Shown in pieces: positions 7,596 through 27,500 of a stretch of DNA of 64,000 nucleotides. Below the pieces are notes generated by a model. It was not told the DNA's origin. It made no database searches and was given only the letters and a program-made list of their open reading frames with translations. Position 1 is the first letter of the stretch. Each line of letters starts with the position of its first letter. Location of the stretch: assembly GCF_024223415.1 (NCBI RefSeq), contig NZ_CP100500.1; one strand, given 5' to 3'. The DNA is from Escherichia coli (GTDB lineage: Bacteria; Pseudomonadota; Gammaproteobacteria; Enterobacterales; Enterobacteriaceae). The translations under genes were made by a program, and so were the position numbers.

Positions 7596-7768
7596 AAAGT
7601 TCTTTGACGTTGCATTGCTGGCGTAAATGTCAGCAATGCAGCATTTCCTCACGATTCTCCTTTGACGATCGCACTTTTTGCTCGTTATGATGGCGTCGCT
7701 AGCCTCAGTAAATCCTTACTCCGGCGGTGCGCAACCCGTGCGCGTGAACCACTATCTGAATGCTCATC

Positions 7769-17082: not shown

Positions 17083-17766
17083 TTAAATGCCGAGTGGGAA
17101 AATATCATGGCCTTGTTCTTGCCAACTGGTGAGTTGCTGCTGTTGGGCGGAGGTTCGATTTTCACCGCACCACACCAGCAATGTACGGCCTTCGAATAGT
17201 TCAGGGCGTAGTTGATTGAGCGAGTGGGCGAGGACATCAATGCGCCATCCTTGTTGACTGGCAATCCAGCCCTCCAGCCACAGACGGGTGGTATCCTGAA
17301 TATTCCAGCCAACCACCAGCGCATCTTTACCCTGTTTTTTACGTGCCGAAGCCAGACAAATGGCGATGTAGTTGATCAGTACGCCGTCGAGGATCGCCAG
17401 CAGCGCCTGGAGAGTCGGTTGTTGGCACTGAAGCCGTCGGCGCAGAGGAATAAACAGATGTGTGGTGAGTGTCTGGGCGGGGTAATCCTGACCGCGCTCT
17501 TTGATCCACGTTCGCAGGCTATGTAGATTGCCGCTTTGCAGGTAAGTCAGTAATGTTTCTTGCTGATCGCGCCAGCCGTTCTGCACATCAACATTTTCAT
17601 TACTGAGCAGCATTTTAACTTTGCTGACCTGCACGCCGTTGTCGATCCAGCGTTTGATCTCGCGGATCCGGTCAATATCGGCATCGTTGAACAGCCGATG
17701 ACCGCCGTCTGTCCGTTGCGGTTTCAGCAATCCGTAACGCCTCTGCCACGCGCGTAACGTGACAGG
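17083..17766 (-). pseudogene. mlrA: mlrA (yehV) 3' portion, separated from its 5' end by prophage insertion
   Basis: Reverse translation ...LKPQRTDGGHRLFNDADIDRIREIKRWIDNGVQVSKVKMLL... is the MerR-family curli regulator MlrA lacking its first ~22 codons, which lie at 63009..63074. Confidence 0.88.
17747..17766. repeat. attL core (direct repeat with 63007..63026)
   Basis: cacgcgcgtaacgtgacagg is identical at both prophage ends and lies inside the mlrA reading frame (encodes PVTLRAW). Confidence 0.8.
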
Positions 17767-17804
17767 GATTAAGGGTAAACTAACTGATTTTACAAGTTTT
17801 TATT

Positions 17805-19091
17805 TTACCCCACTTTCTTATGGGGCATACATGGGACACTTTCAGATAGTCTTTTGTTAAGGAGTTCTATCTGTTCGTGATTGTTGTCTTTCATCCATGC
17901 TCCGTAAACATTGAATACCATTTGTGCGTTTGTGTGGCCCATCTGGCTTGCGATAAAACTAGGATTAGCTCCAGCGGCAAGTGACCAGCATGCATAAGTA
18001 TGCCTGGATTGGTACGATTTTCTGTGTCTCAGACCTGCGCGTTTTAAGATACTTGTCCATGACTCCCTGATGGAGTCAACCTTATAGTGCGGTCCGGAAA
18101 ACTGCCGCTGTTTTATTACCTGAGGACTAAAAACAAAAGTGCATTTATGCACAGTACTTCTCCCATATTCCCTCTGCTTTACCTCTACAGAATGTTGCTT
18201 TCCAAGCATGGTCATTTCCGCCTGACTTTTAAGAGCATCAATAGCTGGTTGAACCAGATGAATTGTCCTTCCGGTGCCAGCATCGGTTTTTGGTGGAGTG
18301 AATTCGCCAAGTTTTGTATAATTCCTACGGATGGTTATAGTCCTTGCTTTAAGGTCTATATCTTCCCATGCCAGCGATACCAACTCCCCGTGACGAATAC
18401 CCGTGTATACAGCGAGAATCCACAGGTTTTTTGTTTGTTGATGACGGCAAGCCTCAATAAAACGAATAAATTCGTCACGGGTGAGAGGATCTGGTTTTAC
18501 CTTGGACTTTTTTAAGGGAGCCAGACCGTTAAATGGGTTTCCTGAGGTATAACCATTATCTGTTGCAAATTGAAACATTCCAGCTATGGTTGTCATATAG
18601 TAGTTTACCGTGACCACTGAGCGCCCTTTTATGGAAGAAGTCTTTCCATTAGAAAGCTTTTGGTAACCGGTCAACAAATCTCTCCTTACGAAAAGTAAAT
18701 CCTCTTTTGTTATGGATGAAACCAGTTTTTTTTCACCTAACATTGGTAACATGTTTTTAATTACTGACTGGTAACGGTTAAGTGCATTCGCACAAATCTC
18801 AATTTTCTTAAGGTCCAACCATTTTTCCGAAAGTGCCTTAACGGTTATCTCTCTTTTTCCCAGACCAAAGTGTTTCAGGTTAGGGGAATTAGGGAACTGC
18901 GCGGCGTAGTCGAAACTCCCCATTCTGATTGCAAAACAAACGGAAGTGCGAAGTTCACCTGCGATCTTCCGGTTTTTGGCGGTGTCAGGAACACCGAGGT
19001 TTTCTCTGACACGTTTGCCATTATAGTGAAACCATATACGGAGTGATCCTCCATGGTTTTCAACGCCTGTCGGGTATGATACGTTACTCAT
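17805..19091 (-). CDS. int: phage integrase (tyrosine recombinase)
   Basis: 428 aa; C-terminal catalytic region ...RHTYACWSLAAGANPSFIASQMGHTNAQMVFNVYGAWM; adjacent to attL. Confidence 0.9.
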   Translation of the reverse strand: MSNVSYPTGVENHGGSLRIWFHYNGKRVRENLGVPDTAKNRKIAGELRTSVCFAIRMGSFDYAAQFPNSPNLKHFGLGKREITVKALSEKWLDLKKIEICANALNRYQSVIKNMLPMLGEKKLVSSITKEDLLFVRRDLLTGYQKLSNGKTSSIKGRSVVTVNYYMTTIAGMFQFATDNGYTSGNPFNGLAPLKKSKVKPDPLTRDEFIRFIEACRHQQTKNLWILAVYTGIRHGELVSLAWEDIDLKARTITIRRNYTKLGEFTPPKTDAGTGRTIHLVQPAIDALKSQAEMTMLGKQHSVEVKQREYGRSTVHKCTFVFSPQVIKQRQFSGPHYKVDSIRESWTSILKRAGLRHRKSYQSRHTYACWSLAAGANPSFIASQMGHTNAQMVFNVYGAWMKDNNHEQIELLNKRLSESVPCMPHKKVG

Positions 19092-21948: not shown

Positions 21949-22776
21949 TTACTTAACCTGAATAAATGGTGTGTTGGCACCGCTGGTCATGTATTGCGGC
22001 AGTGTACCGTTCCACTTGTTGATGGCTTCCAGCTCCATAACGTTTGGGTTCTGGCGCAGAGCTTCACCGCGTAAACGAATAGCATCGGCTTCGGCCTGGG
22101 CTTTTGTGCGAATCGCATCTGCCTGTCCGGCAGCTTCCGCGCGCAACATGTTGGCTTCCGCTTCGCGCTGTTTTACTTCCTGCTCGCGTTGCAGGGTTTT
22201 CTGGTTGGCCGTGACTTTGGCATTAATGCTGTCGATAACGGTTGGCGGGTACTCCGGCTTACCCACATATGAGAGGCTCATTACCTGAATACCGATAGGT
22301 GTCATCTCTGCCTGAATGTCTTTAAGAGCTTCATCCAGCAGCTCAGACTTGCCGCCGTCGATAAATTTGTCAGTGGTCATTTTGCTGGCCAGTCGGTTGA
22401 GTGCGTCGGCGATCTTCTGGCGCAGGTCAGTGTCGGTAATGTCATCCACGCCTTTGCGGTAGGTCTGAAACACCGTGGTAACTTTGGATGGATCAACTTT
22501 GTAGGCCACGCCAATGTGATAGCCGATGGTTGTACCGTCACTCATCTGGAAACTGAACGGTTCATCGTAGGTCTTCATTTGTTTGAAGGTGGGGAAGATA
22601 TAAACTTCAGTATTCCAGCCAGTCCAGTAGCGACCAACACCGACCACCTCACCGACGCCTTTGTCGTCGCCCAGTTTATTTACCTTGATGCCAACATTAC
22701 CTGGTTCAACGCGATCGCAACCGACAAGGCCAATAGTCGGCAGAACAATGGCTAAAGCAAAAATAATTTTTTTCAT
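21949..22776 (-). CDS. SPFH/band-7 (prohibitin-like) domain lipoprotein
   Basis: MKKIIFALAIVLPTIGLVGC lipoprotein signal (lipobox LVGC); central SPFH-like domain and Ala/Glu/Gln-rich coiled coil (QREQEVKQREAEANMLRAEAAGQADAIR). Confidence 0.7.
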   Translation of the reverse strand: MKKIIFALAIVLPTIGLVGCDRVEPGNVGIKVNKLGDDKGVGEVVGVGRYWTGWNTEVYIFPTFKQMKTYDEPFSFQMSDGTTIGYHIGVAYKVDPSKVTTVFQTYRKGVDDITDTDLRQKIADALNRLASKMTTDKFIDGGKSELLDEALKDIQAEMTPIGIQVMSLSYVGKPEYPPTVIDSINAKVTANQKTLQREQEVKQREAEANMLRAEAAGQADAIRTKAQAEADAIRLRGEALRQNPNVMELEAINKWNGTLPQYMTSGANTPFIQVK

Positions 22777-22961
22777 CTTTTATCCTTAGTGAAAGAAAGA
22801 CCCTTGTAAATGGCATAAATGCAGGGCGGGGTCAGAAACGCCAGTGCAAAGCCAGAAATAACTGCTATCGTATCCTTCATGGATATAAGGAACGGAACGA
22901 TTAATCCGTAAATACATGTGATAATTGCCAGTGATATAACTATTCTGAAATAAATGTTCAT
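22773..22961 (-). CDS. small two-TM membrane protein (62 aa)
   Basis: MNIYFRIVISLAIITCIYGLIVPFLISMK...; its stop overlaps the start of the SPFH lipoprotein gene. Confidence 0.5.
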   Translation of the reverse strand: MNIYFRIVISLAIITCIYGLIVPFLISMKDTIAVISGFALAFLTPPCIYAIYKGLSFTKDKR

Positions 22962-23021: not shown

Positions 23022-23267
23022 TCAGAATGGTTTTGTTGCCATCAGTTCGTAATATCCGGCGCTCCATGTGTCATATTTTCTGAACCATTTTTCTGTATAC
23101 TGTTTCCTGGCGATGAGTCTGCGCAGTCGTCTGATTGTTCGCTGGTGTGCGCGGGTATACTCTGTGGTTGATTCTCCACGTTTCCATATCTCATTCCTGT
23201 TGAAGATAAAACGCTTGTCAGGATAGCGTTGTCGGAATCCTGAACGTTCAAAAGCGCGGGTGGTCAT
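23022..23267 (-). CDS. hypothetical basic protein (81 aa), possibly a gene remnant
   Basis: Arg/Lys-rich ORF; upstream 23270..23420 holds an out-of-frame fragment (MIDNRTASAIDQALQKHDTPVGPLFFVTRHGR...) across an A8/T8 tract. Confidence 0.3.
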   Translation of the reverse strand: MTTRAFERSGFRQRYPDKRFIFNRNEIWKRGESTTEYTRAHQRTIRRLRRLIARKQYTEKWFRKYDTWSAGYYELMATKPF

Positions 23268-23601
23268 AAAGAATGCCAGGTAACGAATTGCCGTTTTTCG
23301 AGTGAGGCATTTTTTTTGTTCTTCCGTGGCGTGTTACAAAAAATAACGGGCCGACGGGTGTATCATGTTTCTGTAATGCCTGGTCAATGGCGCTGGCGGT
23401 GCGGTTGTCGATCATTTCTTTATTTCTCCCGAATAACGTTCATGACTCATTACTTCCCAGTTCCGGCCGTCGTCTTTCGATAACAGCCGCCAGCGACGGT
23501 TAACCTTCAGACTGAGATATCCGGTGCGCTGTATCCGATGCGGAAATATCCGTCGGCATCGGTACAACAACAGGACCTGCAATGCCTGCCGGTGGATCCG
23601 C

Positions 23602-23817
23602 TCAGGAATGCGTGTTGCTGTTAATGCCACCGGTTTCCTCCTGAGCAGGTGCTGTTATCTGATACCCCGCTCTTTCTGCCAGCCGTATGAATGTATCCAT
23701 GCTGGCAATCAGCTCGCCATCGCGGACTTTGCAGACACCTGTGACTTGGCCATTTTCAATTGTCATAACGATCTGCACTTTTTCGCGCACAACAGATACA
23801 GGGGATAAATTAGCCAT
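23602..23817 (-). CDS. hypothetical phage protein (71 aa)
   Basis: Start overlaps the upstream gene stop (ATGA). Confidence 0.35.
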   Translation of the reverse strand: MANLSPVSVVREKVQIVMTIENGQVTGVCKVRDGELIASMDTFIRLAERAGYQITAPAQEETGGINSNTHS

Positions 23818-24176
23818 CAGTTAATTCCTCCACTGGTATATTTTTCTTTTTCGTAATCAACAACCTCTTTTAAAAGGTTGTCTACAATTAACTTCCCCGA
23901 TTCAGTTAGATACTCAGTGTGTTGATTAATATTGATGGCATTGCGGTATGCGGCAAGTATTGCGGTCTCGCCATCCGTCCGTCCAAATTCAACACGGGTA
24001 AGACCTTCAAATCGTAATAACAGTTGTGTCATGAAGTGTTCCGTAATTTCGATGGTAGTTAACCCTCCGTCAGGAAGATTTACGATGAGAAGATTTCCTC
24101 CTGTTTTACGTTGCATCCGCTGTAATGCTGTTGTGACTATGCGGTGACGATATTTACCAATGATTTCATATGCCAT
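23817..24176 (-). CDS. hypothetical phage protein (119 aa)
   Basis: MAYEIIGKYRHRIVTTALQRMQRK...; no family recognised. Confidence 0.45.
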   Translation of the reverse strand: MAYEIIGKYRHRIVTTALQRMQRKTGGNLLIVNLPDGGLTTIEITEHFMTQLLLRFEGLTRVEFGRTDGETAILAAYRNAININQHTEYLTESGKLIVDNLLKEVVDYEKEKYTSGGIN

Positions 24177-24360: not shown

Positions 24361-24552
24361 TTATTCGTTACGTAGTGTTTCTATATACTCGTAAGCCATT
24401 TCACAGGTCTTATTCATGGACCTGATGAGACAACATAAATAATCGTCTAACTCTCCTGAGTCGGGCGAATTCTTAAATATAAATTCAAGCATTGATGTAT
24501 TCTCTTTTATTTGTGCCGCCACTTCCTCAAGAATATTTAATGGAGTTTTCAT
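24361..24552 (-). CDS. small acidic helical protein (63 aa), third gene of the module downstream of cI
   Basis: MKTPLNILEEVAAQIKENTSMLEF...; AAGGAG RBS; start overlaps the upstream stop (ATGA). Confidence 0.5.
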   Translation of the reverse strand: MKTPLNILEEVAAQIKENTSMLEFIFKNSPDSGELDDYLCCLIRSMNKTCEMAYEYIETLRNE

Positions 24553-24740
24553 GTTCTTTGCTCCTTTAATGTGTCTCTGGCGCTTCTGGCGTATTGTTGT
24601 GCAAGTAAAAAGATGTCATCCGAAAGTTCATCACATTCTTCATCACCTGAAGCCGAAATGATTAACCCCGCTTCAAGCAGTACGGCAATGTGATGAAAAG
24701 CTGTTTCCGGTTCGTTGGTGAGGCCTTTGAACATTTTCAT
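24549..24740 (-). CDS. small protein (62 aa) paralogous to the N-terminal domain of the adjacent HTH regulator
   Basis: MKMFKGLTNEPETAFHHIAVLLEAGLIISASGDEECDELSDDIFLLAQQYARSA aligns with residues ~8-60 of the 139-aa protein; AGGAGG RBS 9 nt upstream. Confidence 0.55.
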   Translation of the reverse strand: MKMFKGLTNEPETAFHHIAVLLEAGLIISASGDEECDELSDDIFLLAQQYARSARDTLKEQRT

Positions 24741-24741
24741 T

Positions 24742-25161
24742 TTATGCTTCCTCCTGATTTTGTTTATAAGCACCAGTCAGTAACCACATCGGATCACAGC
24801 CAAGAACATTAGCCAGAGGAATAATCTGGCTTGCCAGAGGCTCCCTCTTGCCACTTTCCCACTGGATGATAATTTCTTCATCGAGATTGAGCAGCCTGGC
24901 GAGTTCGGCGGTTGTTAAGCCGCAGTCTTCGCGTTGGGTGCGAATCCGATTCTGGGAATTAATAGCTAAATTTTGTTTGCATAAACGTGACGCGGTGAGG
25001 CTATATTTTTGAGTTACAGCCAGGATGGAGCTGGCAAGTTCAATTAACTCAGGGTTATTGCTGCTATACAGTAGTGCACCAGCCCCTACTAAGAGCTGAA
25101 TATTCTCAAGAGCATCGTGCTGATTTGTTGGTAACCCCATATACGATGACATTTTTCTCAT
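24742..25161 (-). CDS. XRE-family HTH regulator with an N-terminal helical domain (139 aa)
   Basis: C-terminal HTH CGLTTAELARLLNLDEEIIIQWESGKREPL; first gene after the promoter downstream of cI; GAGG RBS. Confidence 0.6.
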   Translation of the reverse strand: MRKMSSYMGLPTNQHDALENIQLLVGAGALLYSSNNPELIELASSILAVTQKYSLTASRLCKQNLAINSQNRIRTQREDCGLTTAELARLLNLDEEIIIQWESGKREPLASQIIPLANVLGCDPMWLLTGAYKQNQEEA

Positions 25162-25198
25162 CCTCTATAATTGCTTTGGTGAGTTCGATACCTATGTC

Positions 25199-25235
25199 AA
25201 GATAATAGGTTTACCGATTTCACCTGTCAATCGGT
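25199..25235 (-). promoter_or_regulatory. strong sigma70-type leftward promoter (pL-like) with overlapping inverted repeat
   Basis: Minus strand reads TTGACA-17 bp-TATTAT; inverted repeat ACCGAT(n11)ATCGGT overlaps the -35; TTATCG half-sites resemble the OR palindrome. Confidence 0.5.
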
Positions 25236-25250
25236 TTATCGATTTTTTCC

Positions 25251-25280
25251 AAAAAAAAGCCCACTTAAGAGTGGGCGGGT
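25251..25280 (-). terminator. rho-independent terminator downstream of cI
   Basis: Minus strand hairpin GCCCAC-tcttaa-GTGGGC followed by T8, 15 bp past the cI stop. Confidence 0.55.
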
Positions 25281-25294
25281 TAAATGATTTTTGC

Positions 25295-25987
25295 TTATGC
25301 AAAACGGTGTAGTGTCATAGGCCAACTGACAATTACTTTTCCGTCAATGTGAAGTTGTTCGAAGTCTTCCGGTTCGATAGCCCAATCCTTGTAAGCTGGG
25401 TTGTCAGATATCACCGTTAGAGTATCTTTGATTTTTTGAAGTCTTTTGATGTGCGATGTTCCAGAGTATGTAAAGGCGTATATACCATCACCATTAAATG
25501 TGCGAACTGATACATCTACAAATACCAAGTCTTCAGGGTCTATTGTGCCTTTCATACTGTCGCCGTGGGCGTTTATTGCTTTGATTGCTGATGCTGGTCT
25601 GCCGCCAAAAACTCTTGATGCGTATCCTGGCTCTATCGCTATAGATCTGACAATGTCAGGAAAATCAGAGTTATAACTACCAGGTCCGCAACTATATCTG
25701 ATGTCTAAAACATCCACGACATACGAATCAGTAACCCAATCTTCAGAAATGTTACGTATTTGGTGTGAGTCTGCAGAGGTCACGATTTCCATTGGGCCAA
25801 CACCCGATGCGAGCCATTCCGGGTTAACGCCCAAAACTTTTGCTATTTCGACTGTTTTTCTGGAACCGTTGGCTTTGTTAAGTAGTTGGTTAACACTGGA
25901 CTGAGCCATACCCACTTCTTTGGCCAGCCTACCTTGCGTAAATTTTGCGTTGCGCATAGCTAAATCAAGTCGTTCTGAAAATGTCAT
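25295..25987 (-). CDS. cI: CI-like repressor (HTH + S24 LexA-type peptidase domain)
   Basis: N-terminal HTH (FTQGRLAKEVGMAQSSVNQL) and C-terminal S24 autocleavage domain (AHGDSMKG...IKRL); divergent from the cro-like gene. Confidence 0.85.
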   Translation of the reverse strand: MTFSERLDLAMRNAKFTQGRLAKEVGMAQSSVNQLLNKANGSRKTVEIAKVLGVNPEWLASGVGPMEIVTSADSHQIRNISEDWVTDSYVVDVLDIRYSCGPGSYNSDFPDIVRSIAIEPGYASRVFGGRPASAIKAINAHGDSMKGTIDPEDLVFVDVSVRTFNGDGIYAFTYSGTSHIKRLQKIKDTLTVISDNPAYKDWAIEPEDFEQLHIDGKVIVSWPMTLHRFA

Positions 25988-26019: not shown

Positions 26020-26039
26020 TTTATCGGCTTTCCGATAAA
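26020..26039. promoter_or_regulatory. operator-like palindrome in the cI/cro intergenic region
   Basis: TTTATCGG-cttt-CCGATAAA perfect inverted repeat. Confidence 0.5.
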
Positions 26040-26650: not shown

Positions 26651-26906
26651 TTGGTACCGGGCTTAAAGGTGTCCGGTGGCTGATTGAAAATGGTAAAAAT
26701 ATTTAGACGTCTATATGTCTGGATGTATTTACCACCCCCTAAATGTTTATGGGGGAAAGGGGGCGGTGTTGATCTTTTAGCGCGAAGCGCTGGAACAGGC
26801 TTTTCCAAGAAGACGGGTACATAGGTTAGGTAGATCTCTGTATAGGGAAATACCAGAAGACGCTCAGATGTTTAGACGTCCAGCCGTAAAGATTGGAGGT
26901 GATTTT

Positions 26907-27500
26907 ATGGTTAACAATTTTGCTGATGAAAAATGGATTCCGGTTCCTGTTGCTCCTTACGGCAACGCTTACCTCGTTAGTTCGGCTGGACGCATTCGCG
27001 GTGTTAATCGTGTAGCTGAATCAGAATTTTTTATTCGTCAAATCCGTGGAGTGATCCTCAAAGGGAGGGTGCGTCGGGATGGATATAAGACCGTTAACCT
27101 GAGCTACAAACGAAATCGTCAAACATTTGCCATTCATCGCCTGGTAGCGCTGGCTTTTTGCGACAACCCACACAATCACACTGAGGTTAATCACAAAGAC
27201 GGCAACAAACTAAATAACCACGCATCCAATCTGGAGTGGGTTAGCCACAAAGAAAATATTCAGCACTCAATTCTTACAGGACTCAATAAATCGCAGGGGG
27301 CTGACAACAAGCAATTTAAGGGCCTAATTGTCGCTACAAATCTTTCGACCGGGGAGGAGCAAACTTTTTGCGGGAAAAAGGCGCTAATTAGTGCTGGGTT
27401 TGATCACGGTAGTGTTTATGCGGTTATTGCTGGAAGAGTAAAGTCTCATCGTGGCCACTATTTCAAGCGCCTCCCACTGAACCATGAGGAGGCAGCTTAA
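26907..27500 (+). CDS. HNH endonuclease
   Basis: Start MVNNFADEKWIPV... with GGAGGTG RBS; HNH core EVNHKDGNKLNNHASNLEWVSHKEN. Confidence 0.7.
   Translation: MVNNFADEKWIPVPVAPYGNAYLVSSAGRIRGVNRVAESEFFIRQIRGVILKGRVRRDGYKTVNLSYKRNRQTFAIHRLVALAFCDNPHNHTEVNHKDGNKLNNHASNLEWVSHKENIQHSILTGLNKSQGADNKQFKGLIVATNLSTGEEQTFCGKKALISAGFDHGSVYAVIAGRVKSHRGHYFKRLPLNHEEAA

Follow-up and report, generated by a model that had tools for sequence, protein, structure and literature searches.

The SinI/SinR and AimX/AimC pairs provide the precedent for antagonism of XRE-type regulators by small proteins, and in the latter pair, from arbitrium Bacillus phages, a small helical antirepressor blocks oligomerization of the XRE-type repressor (bioRxiv 10.1101/2025.11.23.689978). 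Here, we analyze a module of three minus-strand genes in a 64,000-nucleotide stretch of Escherichia coli DNA (hereafter "the window"), in which gene A, encoding a predicted alpha-hairpin domain fused to an XRE-type helix–turn–helix (HTH) domain, is followed by b and c, two genes for small acidic proteins. A first-pass annotation of this DNA did not recognize the module as a described system; we likewise found no characterized member of the regulator/hairpin family in the open-access literature, and the reviewed O157 island regulators yielded no match. RgdR was considered as a described member and was dropped, as it lies on cryptic prophage CP-933C, a different element.

The best explanation of the locus, to which we give slightly less than an even chance, is that the window carries a phiP27/phi467-like lambdoid prophage with no recognized N homolog, that the module forms the promoter-proximal end of its cI-repressed early-left (PL) operon, and that the hairpin-HTH regulator encoded there is tuned or antagonized by free-standing hairpins.

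Operon layout, promoter, and prophage setting

The three genes are as tightly coupled as the first-pass annotation proposed. A single base separates the TAA stop codon of A (24744–24742) from the ATG of b at 24740, and the stop codon of b overlaps the start codon of c as ATGA (24552–24549). Gene A would encode 139 aa from its first ATG (25161) and 136 aa from its second (25152); the latter is most likely the true start, because it has the better-placed Shine–Dalgarno sequence and because RefSeq relatives are 136 aa long. Downstream of c lies a 184-nt spacer, in which our scan detected no terminator-like or promoter-like site, and Rfam and tRNA scans detected no RNA element in either the module or the spacer. 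Beyond it, the same-strand array runs on to the integrase gene (17805–19091) in the window and to xis and int in E. coli relatives.

Table 1. Features of the module and its surroundings, in window coordinates.
Feature	Position	Strand	Basis or remark
OR, putative cI operator ATCGGCTTTCCGAT	26023..26036		perfect palindrome between cI and divergent cro-like gene
cI-type repressor gene	25295..25987	-	230 aa, HTH + S24 peptidase (LexA-like); ORF list; upstream same-strand neighbor
Terminator-like stem-loop + T-run, end of cI transcript	25259..25276	-	7-bp stem, 5 GC pairs, then TTTTTTTT
OL-b, putative cI operator ATCGGTTTATCGAT	25230..25243		abuts -35 hexamer, sharing one base
PL-type promoter TTGACA-17-TATTAT	25202..25230	-	consensus matches 11/12
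OL-a, putative cI operator ATAGGTTTACCGAT	25205..25218		overlaps -10 hexamer; 1 mismatch to ATCGG-N4-CCGAT
Gene A, N-terminal alpha-hairpin domain + linker (type A)	24946..25161	-	AlphaFold2 helices; homology to b
Gene A, conserved XRE HTH core + C-terminal tail AYKQNQEEA	24742..24945	-	Pfam HTH_3
Gene b, acidic free-standing alpha-hairpin	24549..24740	-	63 aa; phrog_4587, unannotated function
Gene c, acidic free-standing helical protein	24361..24552	-	63 aa; phrog_6882, unannotated function
Next same-strand gene	23817..24176	-	119 aa; phrog_1737, unannotated function

Upstream of A, we find the cI terminator, the near-consensus promoter, and, overlapping that promoter, the inverted repeat ACCGAT...ATCGGT, all as described in the first-pass annotation. 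The annotation had also taken the repeat as a site for the 139-aa protein itself, a reading that we do not retain. The repeat is made up of the inner halves of OL-a and OL-b, which are 14-bp direct repeats situated 25 bp apart, and because the same motif is present at OR, it is better explained by its sequence as two tandem putative cI operators than as a site of the gene A product. Specifically, ATCGG-N4-CCGAT with at most one mismatch occurs at five sites in the 64 kb, three of which fall in the cI–A and cI–cro intergenic regions. In five other immunity types, the cI–cro and cI–regulator intergenic regions also have short words in common, which are specific to each type and clearest in three of them. 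Because the ATCGG-N4-CCGAT motif of the promoter also sits between cI and cro, the promoter of the module is, as judged from these motifs, a cI-repressed PL. (The counterpart of cI is annotated as a "LexA family transcriptional regulator" in E. coli relatives.) Given their position past the cI terminator and behind a promoter with cI-operator motifs, A, b, and c are therefore placed among the lytic early-left operon genes.

This placement bears on another proposal of the first-pass annotation, namely that the module is exclusion or defense cargo, expressed in the lysogen from a slot like that of rexAB in lambda. Such a role would suit small proteins without annotated function encoded next to cI, and yet it is highly improbable: the module lies past the cI terminator, its promoter is overlapped by cI-operator motifs, it belongs to an array running toward int, and its PADLOC match is to the HTH only. 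The distant relative L092 does have a true moron slot at the cI–regulator position: inserted there, on the opposite strand, is a gene for a 293-aa protein with a weak BRCT match (1962–2843 of that locus). Since the array runs toward int and the promoter carries cI-operator motifs, the module occupies the place of N in lambda rather than that of rexAB. The first-pass annotation saw no N-like antiterminator, and our PHROGs scan of the left-operon and cro-proximal early genes agrees, having recognized no N, CII, or CIII family. Eru1 Stx phages are reported to be likewise without N, CII, and CIII (PMC8044961).

Several other features of the prophage were recorded. The integrase gene abuts an ORF resembling an N-terminally truncated MerR-family gene (17083–19091 for the pair), which by eye we take to be mlrA (yehV). 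The mlrA/yehV gene is a classic insertion site of Stx phages; no stx-like ORF was noticed by eye among ORFs of at least 80 aa downstream of the tRNA cluster, which comprises tRNA-Met, tRNA-Arg(tct), and tRNA-Thr genes in the late-regulatory region (33777–34009, plus strand). The same late-regulatory region contains a 367-aa ORF with the appearance of an OmpC/NmpC-type porin (32075–33178, minus strand). In the early-left operon, a gene for a 275-aa lipoprotein (phrog_200; 21949–22961, minus strand), SPFH/band-7-like by eye, is preceded by one for a 62-aa membrane protein (phrog_1130, moron category), and two overlapping ORFs of 55 and 81 aa (23022–23415, minus strand) match the first and second parts of phrog_1886 and probably represent one frameshifted gene of that operon. 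On the other side of cI, a 210-aa HNH endonuclease ORF (phrog_59, E = 1e-39; 26868–27500, plus strand) lies between the cro-proximal genes and a DEAD-box helicase gene. The E. coli relative L002 has no gene annotated at this position, and because its gap of only ~410 bp is too short to contain the HNH ORF, the comparison suggests a mobile insertion. In the host flank, an Rfam Peptidase-S11 RNA motif (7684–7764, plus strand; 72.8 bits) is unrelated to the module.

Hairpin homology and a proposed pairing mechanism

The architecture first assigned to the product of A, a helical N-terminal domain followed by an XRE-type HTH, is upheld, although its length is most likely 136 rather than 139 aa. AlphaFold2 predicts an antiparallel N-terminal hairpin (helices at residues 14–32 and 37–70; pLDDT of 81–92), a flexible linker, and the HTH, which matches Pfam HTH_3 at residues 73–127 (E = 2.3e-9) and, in a PDB search, the DNA-binding domains of the P22 C2 and 434 repressors. 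PHROGs places A in phrog_4836, labeled "CII-like regulator" (a name only). Other searches returned little: the hairpins had no Pfam match, whether queried as A, as the hairpin alignment, or as c; NCBIfam and PADLOC gave a generic HTH match for A only, with no PADLOC match for b or c; and a PDB sequence search with the hairpin profile retrieved only designed helical repeat proteins and no natural solved structure. Nor did PHROG and Pfam show an arginine-rich motif or an N-family match for A.

BLASTP comparisons of A with b, A with c, and b with c yielded nothing useful, and phmmer and profile methods were therefore needed. With phmmer, b aligns to the hairpin of A over ~58 residues without gaps and at 27 per cent identity (20.7 bits, E = 3e-7 in a set of 14 sequences), and the PHROG profile of the b family matches residues 3–58 of A (E = 2.6e-7). 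The homology of b to the N-terminal domain of A, claimed in the first-pass annotation for a 62-aa protein, is thus supported for a protein that is in fact 63 aa long, and we regard b (pI 4.6), on these alignments, as a genuine free-standing homolog of the hairpin domain of A. Its similarity to the type-B hairpin found in ASU11-like regulators (E = 6e-9) is slightly closer than that to the type-A hairpin of its neighbor. The third protein was thought to be a similar small acidic paralog. It is indeed small and acidic (pI 4.45), but similarity to the hairpin of A or to b was not detectable by BLASTP or phmmer, and its relative is instead the hairpin/N-terminal domain of a regulator allele of type G (P0086; E = 1.4e-9). 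Similarly, a 66-aa protein from other loci matches type-C hairpins (~E = 1e-8). A comparison by hhalign of a profile of b, type A, and type B with a profile of c, type G, type D, and type E gave a probability of 0.3 and so does not establish that the hairpins form one superfamily.

When the hairpin of A and b were joined by a covalent linker and modeled by AlphaFold2, with no control and no PAE, the five models agreed (pLDDT of 85.5, pTM of 0.79), and the nearest folds to the fused model were four-helix bundles. Given this predicted bundle together with the homology, pairing between hairpins would be the most economical mechanism. Under the explanation that we prefer, A would be an early regulator of two modules, a fast-evolving hairpin, part of the immunity block (cro, cI, and OL), and a conserved XRE HTH, while b and c would be free-standing acidic hairpins drawn from the same domain pool as the regulator hairpins. 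The hairpins would pair into four-helix bundles; A would dimerize via its hairpin and thereby bind a conserved DNA target; and b, possibly also c, would form heterodimers with one HTH or none. Once PL fires, these heterodimers would tune or antagonize the regulator, as SinI acts on SinR or AimX on AimC, and by analogy antagonism like that of SinR/SinI or AimC/AimX is the most likely form of regulation. In this scheme, we infer the oligomerization, the DNA target, and the direction of regulation. When perfect palindromes shared by every immunity type were sought as a target for the conserved HTH, nothing convincing emerged, which counts against the scheme.

Assortment and selection of hairpins across related loci

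We compared 87 loci, consisting of 80 IMG/VR contigs, 6 annotated records (5 phages and 1 E. coli prophage), and the window. Co-occurrence of the three genes next to cI, a question raised by the first-pass annotation, is confirmed for the regulator, which directly follows cI on the same strand in all 87 loci, but the b+c cassette is not tied to type-A regulators. Three distant contexts likewise have an S24 repressor gene or a different HTH gene ahead of the regulator. In homologs of A, a highly conserved HTH, present in one or more copies, is joined to N-terminal hairpins of at least nine types that are unrelated or barely related to one another. Between immunity types, mean identity is 27 per cent for cI and 24 per cent for the hairpin, versus ~94 per cent for the HTH core, and the similarity of phi467 to the window begins at ~24945, exactly at the hairpin/HTH boundary of A. 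Additionally, the AYKQNQEEA tail of A co-occurs strictly with the b cassette. These sequence patterns point to three mosaic blocks: cro-cI-OL-hairpin, HTH core, and tail-b-c.

Each hairpin type goes with a single cI type and vice versa, with no discordant pair among 6 types, 52 unique combinations, and 87 loci. This strict correspondence, and a mosaic junction placed exactly between hairpin and HTH, might indicate that the hairpin is an immunity-specific partner-binding module, which might, for example, act as an anti-repressor or commitment factor by binding the cognate cI or Cro, with the free hairpins targeting other repressors. We rejected the linkage as proof of a functional connection: only ~70–150 bp of non-homologous DNA separate cI from the hairpin, and because physical adjacency alone predicts linkage, the correspondence does not discriminate between the alternatives. 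As a partner-binding role also leaves the conserved HTH unexplained, we consider it distinctly improbable.

The cassettes downstream of the regulator behave differently from its hairpin. The b+c cassette is found with hairpin types A, B, C, D, and F, whereas type-A regulators more often lack b and carry a different cassette, with a gene for an L08-like protein of 121 aa that ends in a type-C-like hairpin. Across these loci, the small hairpin genes assort freely with respect to the hairpin type of the regulator, which argues against a dedicated cognate pair. The SinR/SinI logic invoked in the first-pass annotation is therefore retained in part: the homology of b and the packing predicted by AlphaFold2 make it a reasonable mechanism, but a dedicated pair is not supported, given a cassette that accompanies five hairpin types.

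Free assortment would also be expected if b and c had no regulatory link to A and were independent small early proteins, active in host takeover or anti-defense, whose shared ancestry with regulator N-terminal domains merely reflects the shuffling of domains within a mosaic region. Small acidic early proteins are typical anti-defense factors, and the presence of the hairpin at the C-terminus of the otherwise unrelated L08-like proteins fits such shuffling. Nevertheless, 82 of the 87 loci contain one or more additional hairpin ORFs downstream of the regulator, translation of b and c is coupled to that of A, and AlphaFold2 confidently predicts a bundle of two hairpins, all of which make the absence of a link unlikely.

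Querying 1.84 billion representative proteins with the hairpin profile yielded 39 members. Many are stand-alone proteins of ~63 aa (MKTFKGLSLxP...), and others are fusions of an N-terminal hairpin to several tandem XRE HTH domains, as in P0143, P0151, and P0155, the last and longest of which has at least three HTH copies behind one hairpin. From their sequence, the single-HTH forms appear to have arisen by deletion between the repeated "CDPxxLLTG" ends. The tandem-HTH relatives retain the hairpin although it would not be needed there for dimerization, and this counts against the preferred explanation, as do the failure of the small hairpins to co-vary with the regulator hairpin, the greater proximity of b to type-B hairpins than to the hairpin of its neighbor, and the lack of detectable similarity between c and A. 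Simple titration by a cognate partner is accordingly weakened by free assortment, by a protein c that is unrelated to A, and by the retention of the hairpin in multi-HTH proteins.

Both small genes, whose conservation had been in question, retain intact reading frames without variation in length. Their pN/pS is 0.19 for b (12 alleles) and 0.14 for c (9 alleles), and they are under purifying selection. In the type-C lineage, pS is equally saturated in cI, the hairpin, and the HTH (0.6–0.78), while pN is 0.03–0.09 in cI, 0.02–0.09 in the HTH, and 0.21–0.28 in the hairpin. Given the low pN of the HTH at saturated pS, the HTH is therefore strongly purified and the hairpin evolves several-fold faster.

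Such rates, three- to nine-fold faster at the protein level than in the flanking cI and HTH, are expected in conflict, and the free hairpins might accordingly serve in interference between phages, mimicking the hairpins of other immunity types and, instead of regulating their own neighbor, poisoning the early regulators of related co-resident or co-infecting phages as dominant-negative heterodimers. Each free hairpin does have a homolog among regulator hairpins elsewhere (b closer to type B than to type A, c to type G, and the 66-aa protein to type C), and the cassettes show free assortment with respect to regulator type. However, the free hairpins are only ~30 per cent identical to their supposed targets, the free hairpin and the regulator are of one type at some loci (the 66-aa protein alongside type C), a cI-repressed promoter would confine the action of these genes to lytic growth, and pN/pS remains below 1. 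We therefore regard interference as unlikely. A broader version is in our estimation quite unlikely; in it, the hypervariable, immunity-linked hairpins of the early regulators would be the specificity determinants of conflict among related temperate phages, and free hairpins would act in polylysogens, such as Shiga-toxin-producing E. coli, as portable dominant-negative mimics or trans-acting anti-repressors against the regulators or repressors of heteroimmune competitors.

The database names raise one more alternative, in which A is an unstable activator of lysogeny establishment in a phage without cII, and the free hairpins protect it as decoys or inhibitors of a host protease that recognizes the hairpin. 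In lambda, CIII is a small helical inhibitor of FtsH encoded in PL. The PHROGs label of A and the ASU11 annotation "putative CII repressor" are in keeping with this arrangement, the scanned early genes contain no recognized N, CII, or CIII family, and free assortment would fit a generic protease decoy. The names are annotation only, though: no Pfam CII or CIII family is among the matches of A, the hairpins, or c. Moreover, no PRE-like or Pint-like target was identified, and the diversity of hairpins is left unexplained, so that we give this alternative little credence.

The locus matters beyond the window. Phages that carry the family include Stx1a-, Stx2a-, Stx2d-, and Stx2e-converting (phiP27) phages, and the regulator family thus holds the position of lambda N in lambdoid phages, some of them Stx-converting, with no recognized N, CII, or CIII. 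A regulator with a swappable, fast-evolving hairpin and free paralogs offers a concrete and directly testable hypothesis for the circuit that sets lytic commitment, and hence toxin release, in these phages. Free hairpins may also provide a route of cross-talk between co-resident prophages.

Comparison with described systems

Among lambda regulators, A resembles N in being the product of the first gene of PL and in that its specificity-determining N-terminal part would be inherited with the immunity block, but differs from it as an HTH DNA-binding protein for which neither an N-family match nor an arginine-rich motif was found. With CII and CIII, the module shares the combination of an early regulator and a small helical accessory protein encoded in PL, along with the "CII-like" name given to A by databases. 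It has no sequence membership in either family, and lambda CII is encoded in the PR operon.

The AimC/AimX pair is similar in that a small helical protein and an XRE-type regulator operate in the lysis–lysogeny circuit of a phage. In contrast to AimC, A is not the prophage repressor, a role for which a separate S24-type cI is present; no peptide signaling system was seen; the hosts are Enterobacteriaceae; and the hairpin alleles are hypervariable.

The SinR/SinI pair of Bacillus subtilis (and SlrR/SlrA) differs from the module in several respects. The domain order is reversed, the hairpin of A being N-terminal; the hairpins match no Pfam family, those of the SinI/SinR type included; the small proteins show no covariation with their regulators, as b+c occur with five hairpin types; one of the two, c, is unrelated to the domain of its neighbor A; and the module is located in an early-lytic phage operon. 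What the two have in common is an XRE HTH regulator with a two-helix domain and a small homologous helical protein (b in the module) with the potential to form a heterodimer in which it contributes no HTH. By this analogy, we consider it plausible that the module is an uncharacterized member of the regulator-plus-small-hairpin arrangements that SinR/SinI exemplifies.
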